From a virus (Duplodnaviria > Heunggongvirae > Uroviricota > Caudoviricetes): 36,928 nucleotides of DNA. Location of the stretch: positions 1-36,928 of IMG/VR virus record IMGVR_UViG_2778261565_000018. The stretch is one strand, 5' to 3'. Positions 18,741 through 30,600 of this stretch are shown here, in pieces (within the stretch, counting starts at the first letter, position 1; each line of letters opens with the position of its first letter). The translations under genes and the position numbers were made by a program. The notes beneath the pieces were generated by a model. It saw only the letters and a program-made list of their open reading frames with translations, ran no database searches and was not told the origin of the DNA.

Positions 18741-19091
18741 ATGCCATCACGAATCCCACGCGCCTGCCGTAAGCGTGGATGTGCAGGTACAACCACAGAC
18801 AGTTCTGGTTACTGCGATAAACATCGTGGCGAAGGATGGGTACAGCATCAACGCGGACTGAGCCGCCACCAGCGTGGCTATGGCTCGAAATGGGATGCCA
18901 TACGTGCGCGCATACTGAAGCGTGATAATCATCTGTGTCAGAACTGCCTGCGCAATGGGAGAGCCGTTGAAGCCAGAACTGTGGACCACATCATTCCGAA
19001 AGCTCATGGTGGCACGGATGCAGACAGTAACCTGCAGAGTCTGTGCTGGCCCTGTCATAAAGCAAAAACAGCGCGCGAACGCATCAATTGA
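18741..19091 (+). CDS. HNH endonuclease (terminase-associated), 116 aa
   Basis: HNH motifs (CQNC...DHIIPKAHGG...CWPCH) and zinc-binding Cys pairs; directly upstream of terminase genes. Confidence 0.85.
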   Translation: MPSRIPRACRKRGCAGTTTDSSGYCDKHRGEGWVQHQRGLSRHQRGYGSKWDAIRARILKRDNHLCQNCLRNGRAVEARTVDHIIPKAHGGTDADSNLQSLCWPCHKAKTARERIN

Positions 19092-19239
19092 TAACAGTTC
19101 CCATCTGTAGGGGAGGGGCGGGTCAAATCTCTGCAACCCTGGCTGCTCAGTACCGCCGCCTGACCCTTCCTCACATCGCCGCAGGTTCGAAAACTTTTTT
19201 TTGGAAATGTGAACAAACGATTGATAGGTAAGACCGATT

Positions 19240-19722
19240 ATGTCAGGACCTCCGAAAACCCCGCCACGCCTGCATTTGATTCGAGGCAACCCCTCAAAGC
19301 GCCCCGTTAAAGACCACAAAAAAACCGCTAAAAAGGATGAAAAAGGTCTTCCTAAAATTCCGCAGCATTTAGGGGCTCAGGGGAAGTACTGGTTCAGGCG
19401 AATGGCGGAAGAGCTGAATGCGGAAGGGATCATTTCTCAGCTTGATGCGCGTGCGCTTGAGCTACTGGTGGAAGCCTATACCGAATACCGGCATCACTGC
19501 GAAACACTCGATGTTGAGGGGTACACCTACCGCTCGGAAACGCAGAACGGTGATGTGCTGATTAAGGCACACCCGGCTGCTGCGATGAAAGCGGATGCCT
19601 GGAAGCGGATCCGGGCGATGCTTGCAGAATTTGGTATGTCACCGGCAAGCCGGGCAAAAGTAAATACCGCCGGACCGGATAATGTTGATCCGCTGGCAGA
19701 GCTTTTAAAAGCGAGAGACTGA
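19240..19722 (+). CDS. Terminase small subunit (P27-like family), 160 aa
   Basis: Basic N terminus; immediately precedes and abuts large terminase. Confidence 0.75.
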   Translation: MSGPPKTPPRLHLIRGNPSKRPVKDHKKTAKKDEKGLPKIPQHLGAQGKYWFRRMAEELNAEGIISQLDARALELLVEAYTEYRHHCETLDVEGYTYRSETQNGDVLIKAHPAAAMKADAWKRIRAMLAEFGMSPASRAKVNTAGPDNVDPLAELLKARD

Positions 19723-27665: not shown

Positions 27666-27688
27666 AACCGCTTCGGCGGTTTTTTTTC
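27666..27688 (+). terminator. Terminator-like hairpin between T and the tape measure gene
   Basis: AACCGC-ttcg-GCGGTT followed by T8. Confidence 0.5.
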
Positions 27689-27697
27689 GTCCGGAGA

Positions 27698-30600
27698 ATG
27701 AGTGTGGCGACATTACGTGAACTGATTATTAAAATCTCGGCAAATTCCCGGTCATTCCAGTCAGAGATCTCCCGGGCTTCGCGTATGGGGCAGGATTACT
27801 ACCGTACCATGCAGAACGGAGGCCGACAGTCCGCTGCTGCATCCCGTGAAATGCGGCGTGCACTGGCAGAAGTGACGGATCAGATAAATACAGCTAAATC
27901 TTCGGCACTGAACATGGCGGGGGCATTTGCCGGGGCTTTTGCTACCGGTCATCTTATTTCTCTCGTCGATGAGTGGAATTCAGTAAATGCCCGTCTGAAG
28001 CAGGCCTCACAGTCCAGTGATGATTTTCAGTCATCACAGCGTGAATTAATGGCGATCAGCCAGAGAACGGGGACGGCGTTTTCTGATAACGCCAGCCTTT
28101 TTGCCCGTTCTGCAGCTTCCATGCGGGAGTATGGTTACAGTTCTGAGGAGGTACTGAAAGTCACCGAGGCGATCTCCACGGGCCTGAAATTATCCGGTGC
28201 CAGTACAGCAGAAGCCAGTTCGGTGATCACGCAGTTCAGTCAGGCACTGGCGCAGGGAGTGCTGCGCGGTGAAGAGTTTAACTCGGTGAATGAGAACGGC
28301 GATCGTGTTATTCGTGCGCTGGCTGCGGGAATGGGGGTTGCCCGTAAGGATCTGAAGGCCATGGCGGATAACGGAAAACTGACCGCCGATAAGGTTGTTC
28401 CTGCACTGATTAGTCAGCTTGGGGCGTTGCGTGATGAATATGCAGCAATGCCTGATACGGTTTCATCCTCTGCAACCAAAGTTGAAAACGCCTTTATGGC
28501 CTGGGTTGGTGGTGCGAACGAGGCAAGCGGAGTGACGAAGACGCTCTCCGGTGTGCTGAATGGTATTGCAGGCAATATTGACACCGTGGCAACCGCTGCT
28601 GGTGCTCTGGTTGCCGTCGGGGTAGCCCGATATTTTGGCAATATGGCGTCGTCTGCTGGATCTGCAACTGCCGGATTAATTACTGCAGCCAGAAACGAAG
28701 TGGCTCTTGCTGAAGTGCAACTTCGGGGGACACAGATAGCAACCGCCAGGGCGCGTGCGGCGGTTTATCGTGCGCAACAGGCGGTTGTTGCTGCTCGCGG
28801 TACCGAAAGGCAGGCCGCAGCAGAAGCGAAGCTGACAGCTGCCCAGGTGTCACTTACCCGTAATATTGCGGCCAGAACAGCGGCACAGACAACGCTGAAT
28901 AATGTTACGTCAGTGGGGAGTCGTTTATTAAGTGGCGCGCTGGGGCTGGTTGGTGGTGTGCCGGGACTCGTCATGCTGGGGGCTGCGGCCTGGTACACGA
29001 TGTATCAGAATCAGGAGCAGGCCAGAGAATCTGCACGACAGTATGCCGCAACAATCGACGAAATTCGCCAGAAAACGTCGGCAATGTCGCTTCCTGAAGC
29101 GTCAGATAATGAGGAAAAGACGCGACAGGCACTGAAGGAGCAAAACAGGTTAATTGACGAGCAGAAAAGTAAGATTAAATCCTTACAGGAAAAAATTGCT
29201 GGCTATCAGTATGTGCTGGCAAACCCGGGCTGGACAACCGATAACGGTTTTATGATTAACCACATGACGTCGGTAAAAACTGTCACAGAAGGGCTTGCAG
29301 AAGCAACAAATCAACTGGCAGTTGAACAGTCTCGCCTCACTCAAATGCAGGGCAAAGCGCAATCCATTCAGGATGTGCTTGCCGGGCTGGAGGAGCGACG
29401 GGTGGCGTTGATCCGTCAACAGGCAGCGGAACAAAACAAAGCGTATCAGTCCCTGTTGATCATGAATGGGCAGCATACCGAGTTTAATCGCCTTCTCGGG
29501 CTCGGTAATGAATTACTTCAGCAGCGACAGGGGCTGGTGAATGTACCGTTACGGCTACCACAGGCAACCCTGGATGATAAACAGCAGACCGCACTGAATA
29601 ACAGCGAGCGCGAACTGGCTCTGTCCCGCCTGAAGGGGGAAGCTCGTGAGCGTGCCCGCCTGGGTTATGCTGCGGATGATCTCGGCTTTGTGGGAGAGGC
29701 GTATCAGACAGCAAGACTGAATTATATAAATAACTCACTGGATGCATGGCGAAATAACCAGGCAAATAAACCCAAAGCGCATAAAAAGACCGAAGCGGAA
29801 AAAATAGAAGATACTTATAAGCAACTGATTAAACAGCAAAAAGAGCAAATAGCACTGGCAGGGCAGAATACTGAACTGGCTAAGATGAAATATCAGGTCA
29901 GCCAGGGCGAATTATCAACCCTGTCAGAAGCGCAGAAAAAAACGCTTTTGCAGAATGCAGCACTCATCGACCAGAAAAAGATTCGTGAGCAGCTTGCTGC
30001 GTATGAGAGCAGTCTGGCGGACAGTAATGCCAGTGTCAGAGCATCAAATGAGGCTCAGTTACTGGGATATGGTGAAGGCTCACGGATGCGTGAACGACTT
30101 CAGGAAATGTGGAGCATCCGGCAGGAGTTTGAGCAGAAAAATAACGAGCTACTGAGACAGTATCAGGCCGGAGAAATTGAAGAAGCCCTGTGGAAACAGG
30201 AAAAATCTCTGAATGAAAAATATCTGGAAGAGCGTCTCAGCGATCAGCAGGATTATTATGCAAAGGCTGATGCTTTACGCAGTAACTGGAATGCCGGACT
30301 CCAGGAGGGACTGACGAACTGGGCAGACAGTGCCACCGATTATGCTTCGCAGGCGGCAGATGCTGTCGTTTCCACTATGGACGGGCTGGTATCAAATATT
30401 TCCGATGCACTGGCCGGAAATGTTGTGGACTGGAGAAACTGGGGGAGTTCAATTCTCCAGGAAGTTTCAAAAATTCTGATGAACGCTGCCATCGTTAACG
30501 GGCTGAAGTCACTTTCCAAAAGCATGTCCGGTGCCGGAGGATGGCTTGGTACAGTCGGCGACTGGCTTTCCGGTGCAGTGGCAAACGCAAAAGGTGGTGT

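Follow-up and report, generated by a model that had tools for sequence, protein, structure and literature searches.

The joining of HK97-type heads to lysis and tail-tip genes of the lambda type is a classic case of mosaicism, presented in PMC9836094 (citing Juhala et al. 2000) as a founding observation of lambdoid phage genomics. HNH-assisted cleavage of cos has also been described already for HK97, as PMC9410871 reports that the HNH protein gp74 stimulates cos cleavage by the large terminase subunit (TerL) in a reconstituted system, and PMC11331095 suggests that TerL and the HNH protein may each cut one of the strands. The resulting HK97 ends hold 10-nucleotide (nt) 3' overhangs (PMC9410871, Figure 1 legend; PMC11331095), and zinc-ribbon HNH nickases encoded next to cos and terminase genes constitute a common class (PMC3592412). 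The locus analysed here lies at positions 18741–27698 of a 36,928-nt stretch of DNA from a Caudoviricetes virus (IMG/VR record IMGVR_UViG_2778261565_000018), referred to as the window. The whole window is a lambdoid prophage of Escherichia coli sitting in the lambda attachment site, and its late operon is very probably a recombinational mosaic, in which lambda-type lysis genes precede a P27/HK97-type packaging and head module, HK97-like joining and tail-shaft genes, and a lambda-type tail tip (L, K, I, J).

The arrangement resembles that of HK97 (AF069529), which holds lambda-like S and R genes followed by the genes for the HNH protein (gp74), cos, the small terminase subunit (TerS), TerL, the portal, an S78 protease, and a major capsid protein (MCP) with a delta domain. 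Further downstream, both encode gp6/7/10/11 connectors, an Ig-tagged major tail protein, a pair of chaperones produced by a -1 frameshift, a tape measure protein, and M-L-K-I-J. The HK97 cos site is also organised alike, with a G-rich box, 24 bp, and a 10-mer beginning with CGCCGCC. The two phages differ in their L, K and I alleles (~35% identity), which in the window are those of lambda (78–95%). The finding reported here is correct but ordinary: the module type is already known, and HK97 has the same layout.

HK97/P27-type cos packaging within a mosaic lambdoid prophage accounts with high confidence for the locus as a whole. In such a pathway, TerS would recognise an element to the right of the cut (~19171–19202), and TerL together with the adjacent HNH protein would cut concatemeric DNA at cos, leaving the 10-nt 3' overhang CGCCGCCTGA. 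TerL would then pump the DNA via the HK97-type portal into a prohead made of a capsid protein with its own N-terminal scaffolding (delta) domain, a domain that the S78 protease would remove.

Mosaic Organization of the Late Region

A dot-plot comparison of the window with the lambda and HK97 genomes, carried out with blastn for DNA and with tblastn for proteins, bears out the mosaic structure that an initial annotation had proposed for the late region, and so do the protein identities. On the left side, DNA similarity to lambda is 97–100% across the holin gene S (17451–17774) and R (17758–18234), decays from 93% to 72% across the spanin gene Rz (18231–18698, + strand; Pfam Phage_lysis, E 6e-47), and ends at the Rz stop codon. 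Rz, in which Rz1 is embedded (18451–18636, with a VSAC lipobox and a proline-rich tail), is the last lambda-like gene on this side. The description of the lysis genes as lambda-like applies fully to S and R, whose products are 99% and 98.7% identical to those of lambda; it fits Rz less well, with 76% identity and divergence increasing along the gene. Beyond this point, blastn found no match to lambda across 18677–31256, and tblastn against lambda yielded none for any gene from HNH through the G-T chaperone. In particular, neither DNA nor protein similarity was detected to lambda Nu1, A, W, B, C, D, E or V, and the products of lambda 191–7965 (Nu1 to FII) went undetected. The claim that the intervening genes are not those of lambda has held, as the check for a lambda-type head came out negative.

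DNA similarity to lambda resumes at 31257, with 90.5% identity across L (31277–31975, + strand), the first lambda-type gene on the right, and 91.5% across K-I-J. The L, K and I proteins are 94%, 95% and 78% identical to their lambda counterparts, so the tail genes are lambda-like as had been stated, with the exception of M (30936–31277, + strand; PF05939), which is ~40% identical to both lambda M and HK97 gp17 and represents a third allele type. The left boundary of the module lies where it had been placed: Rz stops at 18698 and HNH starts at 18741, and the joint falls within the 42 bp that separate them. The right boundary, on the contrary, is not at the tape measure gene (27698–30943, + strand; Phage_HK97_TLTM, E 2e-93) but at the M/L junction, ~3.5 kb beyond 27698, because lambda DNA similarity returns only at 31257 and the tape measure protein is HK97-like, being 55% identical to gp16 and 25% identical to lambda H in its C-terminal part only.

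Regarding HK97, DNA similarity in the late structural region (18677 onward) is confined to 25107–30781, at 66–73%. Identities at the protein level are 28% for both TerL and the portal and 23–24% for the MCP, and the HK97 counterparts of TerS and the protease were undetected by tblastn. The products encoded downstream are 65% (gp7-like), 80.5% (gp10-like), 51% (gp11-like), 72% (major tail protein, gp12), 64% (G, gp13) and 63.5% (T, gp14) identical. To judge by these sequence comparisons, the "HK97-type" block is itself composite, with at least three sub-modules that exhibit very unequal relatedness to HK97.

Other phages share different portions of the region. The Stx-converting phage phi467 (LN997803) holds 18231–21421 (Rz-HNH-TerS-TerL) and 25069–31975 (the gp7-like gene to L) at 96%, and differs in its portal, protease, MCP and gp6-like alleles across 21422–25068. 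This segment, which comprises a small open reading frame (ORF), portal, protease, MCP and adaptor genes, has its counterpart, at ~75% identity, in a group of Klebsiella phages. phiP27 (AJ298298) shares just 18741–19157 (83% nt identity), and mEp235 (JQ182731) shares the right half of cos through TerS (~72% nt identity). This patchwork of sharing therefore places joints at gene boundaries, namely at R/Rz, Rz/HNH, inside cos, near the 3' end of TerL, at adaptor/head closure, and at M/L.

Predicted cos Site

The gap of 148 bp between the HNH and TerS genes (19092–19239), in which cos had been suspected, is confirmed as real and non-coding. Within it, a G-rich box, GGGGAGGGGCGGGTCAAATC (19110–19129), which is the left sub-site of the predicted cos, is followed by 24 bp ending in GTAC and by the predicted 10-nt cohesive end CGCCGCCTGA (19154–19163), with predicted cuts at 19153/19154 and 19163/19164. 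The placement of cos in this gap is not only supported but also sharpened to the base, because the 10-mer stands in register with the defined ends of five phages. It aligns ungapped with the last 10 nt of the HK97 record, CGCCGCCAAA, with the cos site of SfI, TGCCCGCCCC, with which the SfI record ends, and with the annotated cos-site of phiP27, CGCCCGCCCC. The termini of the Proteus phage Pm34 record are also in register, with GGAC before the cut and CGCCCCCTTA after it, as is the end of the Edwardsiella phage EPP-1 record, which falls after TGCCCGCCTC. The 10-nt SfI site was found experimentally by sequencing the ends of virion DNA (PMC3636060). From the motif TCAAATC (TAAATC in EPP-1), the distance to the cut is 24 bp in HK97, SfI, phiP27, Pm34 and EPP-1, and the G-box is kept 24 bp before the cut in these phages (as a variant in HK97) and in mEp235. 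From this ungapped alignment, the cohesive end of the window is predicted to be a 10-nt overhang, presumably of 3' polarity.

Three of the phages also resemble the window in what surrounds the site. SfI agrees with it in the G-box, the spacing of 24 bp and the 10-nt cos, with an HNH gene immediately upstream and a lambda-like right arm (PMC3636060); SfV is grouped with SfI in the same paper (PMC3636060). In phiP27, the HNH gene (91% amino acid and 83% nt identity) runs into a 10-nt cos-site in register, and TerS also belongs to PF05119, although this TerS is of another lineage and the lysis genes upstream are different. mEp235 has the same cos type and TerS lineage, and differs in its ClpP-type protease and HK022-like tail genes; as a reference for cos ends it was ruled out, with a record that starts at the TerS ATG.

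A scan of IMG/VR for the G-box recovered 76 instances with a cos-like cut site, and in 69 of them an HNH homologue ends ~26–30 nt upstream. The order found in the window (HNH stop at 19091, G-box at 19110, predicted cut at 19154–19163, TerS at 19240) is the same in these 69 loci. To the right of the cut, the loci fall into two main sequence classes. The class of the window (TCACATCGCCGCAGGTT, GAAAAC and a run of T7–9) was present in all 20 loci with a window-type TerS and absent from all 38 loci of the other class, to which SfI belongs, with a right-hand element of that class (TTTTTATACCCGCGAAA) and a different TerS type. In the window, this right-hand element consists of TCACATCGCCGCAGGTTCGAAAAC followed by T8 (19171–19202), extends from +8 to +39 relative to the cut, ends in the T-run, and includes the block CCGCAGGTT. 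It is kept in non-coding DNA even among loci with 40–60% TerS identity, while the 20 bp from the G-box to the cut vary freely. In HK97, the mapped binding site of TerS spans +15 to +29 and adjoins an A-tract (PMC11331095). Since the right-hand element tracks the TerS type, holds a conserved block, and occupies a position similar to that of the HK97 site, it is proposed as a candidate TerS recognition element.

The similarity to phiP27, which starts with the HNH gene at 83%, ends at 19157, inside the predicted overhang, and the sequence to its right is of the mEp235/Pm34 lineage. This break may mean that recombination has joined two sequences at the cut site itself, or else that each half of cos co-evolves with a protein of its own. 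In at least two unrelated TerS classes, the G-box accompanies the HNH gene, and the right-hand element goes with TerS. A tentative reading, for which the odds are rather low, is that cos is bipartite with a mosaic joint at the cut, and that the G-box might be a sub-site for the HNH/TerL nuclease pair, by analogy with cosQ of lambda; this role, like one in termination as for cosQ, is speculation. If it were true, the G-box would account for the targeting of a single position by an HNH nickase that is nominally non-specific. In the literature, of which coverage was limited, no description of the G-box was found. It is absent from the same place in more distant HNH-bearing phages (PY54, Burkholderia vB_E173 and Vibrio Va_91-7-154_p41), and this cos architecture is therefore limited to enterobacterial/vibrio relatives and HK97. 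The assortment of the cos halves with different neighbouring genes provides a testable hypothesis on which protein reads which half.

Two other features of this interval were rejected. A search for inverted repeats around cos gave a single weak pair, reaching into the TerS coding sequence, which was judged to be due to chance, and a minus-strand ORF at 18747–19319 that overlaps the HNH gene and cos was judged spurious.

HNH Endonuclease and Terminase

The HNH gene (18741–19091, + strand) encodes a protein that matches PF01844 (E 1.9e-16) over the full length of the model (positions 1–47) and PHROG 144 (E 1e-41). Its HNH motif is intact (H82, N97, H106), with CxxC pairs at 66–69 and 102–105, and it is preceded by an N-terminal zinc ribbon (C9, C14, C25, H28). 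With these features, it fits the class of zinc-ribbon HNH nickases mentioned above (PMC3592412). The protein is 91% identical to L34 of phiP27. Its best solved relative is PDB 5H0M, with which it aligns from end to end, including the zinc ribbon and the HNH core (E 2.4e-15). The enzyme of 5H0M/5H0O, a distant relative of the one in the window, is presumably from Geobacillus virus E2. A CG/GT nicking specificity was reported for the HNH enzyme of that virus by Xu and Gupta (PMC3592412). HNH-assisted cos packaging, as proposed in the initial annotation, finds support in homology and synteny (the intact HNH motif, the relatives 5H0M and, for TerL, 6Z6D, and the gp74 precedent), from which the mechanism is inferred; by analogy, the HNH protein would be needed for cos cleavage here.

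One close relative carries a disrupted copy of this gene. In PhiR49_2 (PV340570, 18023–18843), an insertion of ~820 bp replaces the 3' end of the HNH gene (corresponding to window 19021–19109), with the loss of the second CxxC pair and the last histidine, and includes an opposite-strand ORF of 171 amino acids. A "YfbU family protein" gene is inserted in the same neighbourhood in several E. coli genomes.

TerS (19240–19722, + strand) is a member of the P27 family, matching PF05119 Terminase_4 (E 5e-25; 88.1 bits against a cut-off of 24.7), as does phiP27 L35, and PHROG 83 (E 3e-54); PGAP names its homologue "phage terminase small subunit P27 family". No similarity to HK97 gp1 or lambda Nu1 is detectable in this protein, and a sequence search of the PDB gave only chance-level matches, with no link to the HK97 TerS structure. 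HK97 gp1 itself matches neither PF05119 nor any other Pfam family. TerL (19722–21479, + strand) holds the Pfam domains TerL_ATPase and TerL_nuclease (E 3e-52 for the nuclease), and its only solved relative by sequence is the HK97 TerL (6Z6D, E 1e-35). Residues R126/K127/K130 and D221/E222 occupy the positions of R56/K57/K60 (Walker A) and D153/E154 (Walker B) of the HK97 enzyme, in which K57, K60 and E154 are essential (PMC9410871).

Between the terminase and portal genes lies a strongly hydrophobic ORF of 53 amino acids (21476–21637, + strand) that overlaps the TerL stop and the portal start. It belongs to PHROG 7105 (E 9e-20), is hypothetical in relatives, and bears a weak likeness to a "membrane protein" moron family (PHROG 502, E 1e-6). 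For a membrane protein, such a placement is odd.

Head Assembly Genes

The order TerS-TerL-portal-protease-MCP is the one annotated in HK97, and the matches of the portal, the protease and the MCP all lie far above the Pfam gathering scores. The portal (21627–22853, + strand; PF04860, E 2e-100) belongs to the HK97 family, and its best solved relative is the HK97 portal (8CEZ, E 2.7e-39). The prohead serine protease S78 (22846–23445, + strand; PF04586, E 1.6e-40) is 33% identical to HK97 gp4, and its H65 and S117 correspond to H65 and S114 of gp4, which are catalytic. According to the ORF map, no separate scaffold gene exists between the protease stop (23445) and the MCP start (23460), and no decoration-protein gene is evident.

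The MCP (23460–24677, + strand) matches PF05065 over residues 126–403 (E 2e-70), and its solved relatives are the RcGTA capsid (6TBA, E 9.5e-22) and HK97 gp5 (3QPR, E 3e-4). Residue 122 of the MCP corresponds to residue 109 of gp5, and the first ~120 residues, which are highly charged, probably form an N-terminal helical, delta-like domain: in a single-sequence AlphaFold2 model, which has a mean predicted local distance difference test score (pLDDT) of 42.6 overall, residues 2–67 are confident helices, and the rest is poor. In HK97, the chainmail crosslink involves residues K169, N356 and E363. K169 aligns with A184 of the MCP, in a pairwise alignment of 23% identity that is unreliable in the C-terminal half; since this alignment is too weak, the absence of crosslinks is not concluded, and the chainmail crosslink defines HK97 itself, not the wider family.

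Alternative Explanations

Several points weigh against the packaging pathway described above. For this prophage, it is deduced from sequence comparisons. The equation of the HNH protein with gp74 is an extrapolation, because gp74 lacks the N-terminal zinc ribbon that the window protein has (PMC3592412, and our alignment) and is only 37–41% identical to it; moreover, if PhiR49_2 is viable, the module might do without the HNH protein or obtain it in trans. Because the TerS of the window is not detectably related to gp1, the site mapped for the HK97 TerS is not simply transferable. Physical linkage alone could account for the association of the right-hand element with the TerS type. Finally, PMC9410871 is inconsistent about the HK97 overhang, giving 10 nt in the legend of Figure 1 and 12 nt in the Discussion, where 10-nt 5' overhangs are assigned to lambda; a length of 10 nt is favoured by PMC11331095 and by the alignment to SfI and phiP27.

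The HNH gene might be a free-standing selfish homing endonuclease that lies beside the terminase genes by chance, with TerL alone making both cos nicks. Homologues are indeed annotated as "homing endonuclease" in several deposited records, PADLOC matches to the protein are generic only, PhiR49_2 holds a truncated copy, and the HK97 in vitro system packages linear DNA without gp74 (PMC9410871). However, the position of the gene is strictly conserved before the G-box in the 69 loci mentioned above, and it is the last gene before the genome end in many linear phage records. The protein has also been kept at 91% identity to that of phiP27 despite an adjacent TerS of a different lineage, and its alignment with the terminase-associated 5H0M is full-length, with gp74 as a relative reported to stimulate cos cleavage, so that a selfish element is a very unlikely explanation. 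Even more improbable, to the point of being nearly dismissed, is headful (pac) packaging, in which the conserved intergenic sequence would be a pac or regulatory site. The PF05119 family is not in itself diagnostic of the packaging mode; nevertheless, the sole solved relative of TerL by sequence is a cos enzyme, the intergenic sequence can be aligned at every base with the ends of HK97, SfI, phiP27, Pm34 and EPP-1, and SfI has been shown to use cos with a 10-nt gap (PMC3636060). A pac signature had been named as what would overturn the cos assignment, and nothing found points to one.

It can also be asked whether the prophage is a defective remnant with a passive late region that yields no particles. 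Many lambdoid prophages of E. coli are cryptic, an arc/ant insertion interrupts the L-K tail operon, and coverage of the tail genes, the tail-fibre region included, ends inside J, where the window stops. In contrast, all late ORFs from S to I are full length with their motifs intact, including the slippery site of G-T, the module is 98–99% identical to deposited phage genomes, and arc/ant cassettes at L/K are widespread elsewhere, which makes this possibility improbable, if somewhat less so than the previous two. Packaging of the HK97/P27 type at cos is consequently the preferred explanation; the gene families, the module boundaries and the register of cos with defined ends, on which it is built, are directly observed.

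Relatives and Prevalence

The region 18741–27698 is present at 97.7–99.4% nt identity in nine deposited phage records, and the near-identical records include vB_EcoS-611R1, -689R5, -569R6, PhiR49_2 and Evi, as well as a prophage of E. coli KA0011. The head segment (6.5 kb, with at least 80% present) occurs in 622 of 5426 complete E. coli genomes, while the head module behind lambda-type S/R was found in only ~10 of the 5426. The near-identical relatives are joined to other early and lysis modules. The KA0011 prophage, for instance, is colinear from Rz to L at 96.8%, and differs in having an unrelated class II holin and a different lysozyme, and in lacking arc/ant; PhiR49_2 also holds a class II holin and a different lysozyme. 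The base-precise cos prediction thus concerns a module that ~11% of the complete E. coli genomes carry and that Stx-converting phages, phi467 among them, share.

Every gene named in the initial annotation was recovered at its assigned position by the ORF map and Pfam, and the PGAP annotation of a prophage that is 99.3% identical shows the same gene set with the same start codons.

Joining and Tail Genes

The genes that follow the MCP are all on the + strand. A terminator-like hairpin (24697–24716) precedes the gene for the gp6-like head-tail adaptor (24754–25071; PF05135, PHROG 40), after which come those for head closure (25080–25418; Pfam Phage_HCP), a gp10-like protein (25415–25864; Pfam HK97-gp10_like) and tail completion (25861–26205; Pfam Tail_completion_gp17). 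A second terminator-like hairpin (26226–26242) lies before the gene for the major tail protein (26265–26969), whose C-terminal Ig-like domain matches Ig_2 with 27.3 bits, at a cut-off of 27. The true starts differ from those of the longest ORFs for the major tail (26265), gp6-like (24754) and M (30936) genes; that of the major tail gene was picked as lying downstream of the hairpin and adjoining a ribosome-binding site. The chaperone gene G (26969–27355; Phage_TAC_1, E 3e-58) and its T extension (to 27657; Phage_tail_T, E 3.5e-19) are connected by an intact -1 slippery heptamer, A AAA AAG (27346–27352), and the corresponding HK97 genes (gp13/gp14) are annotated with a -1 frameshift.

Between L and K lies an insertion of 1.75 kb with low GC content (0.40; 31976–33723), which encodes an Arc-like repressor (31992–32366, - strand) and a P22-type antirepressor, Ant (32676–33650, + strand), and is flanked by terminator-like hairpins. 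Neither lambda nor the KA0011 prophage has this insertion. Other E. coli genomes also carry arc/ant cassettes at the L/K position, and only two of them have this allele (at least 80% coverage). Another ORF in this interval (32391–32801), devoid of family matches, was judged spurious.

Prophage Context

The attachment site attP, located by blastn against lambda, pairs window position 1331 with lambda position 27724 and lies beside a host gene of the pectinesterase family. The genes int, xis, exo, bet, gam, cIII, O and P, the nin region and the genes before Q show a patchy identity of 94–99% with lambda, whereas the immunity region differs from that of lambda in the nucleotide comparison. In the slot of rexA/rexB (9164–10470, - strand), between cI (10510–11211) and N (8455–8799), two genes encode proteins of 250 (DUF1828) and 185 amino acids. 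They match PADLOC candidate defence system PDC-M24 (B component, E 6e-10; A component, E 5e-4), and the pair may be a prophage-encoded defence cassette.

An Rfam scan of the whole window returned as sole matches the lambda cIII thermoregulator RNA element and two tRNAs, and Rfam and tRNA scans gave no match inside 18741–27698. The tRNAs, a tandem of tRNA-Asn(GTT) and tRNA-Thr(TGT), occupy 17053–17208 between Q and S, and a tRNA-Asn/tRNA-Thr pair is likewise reported downstream of Q in SfI (PMC3636060).

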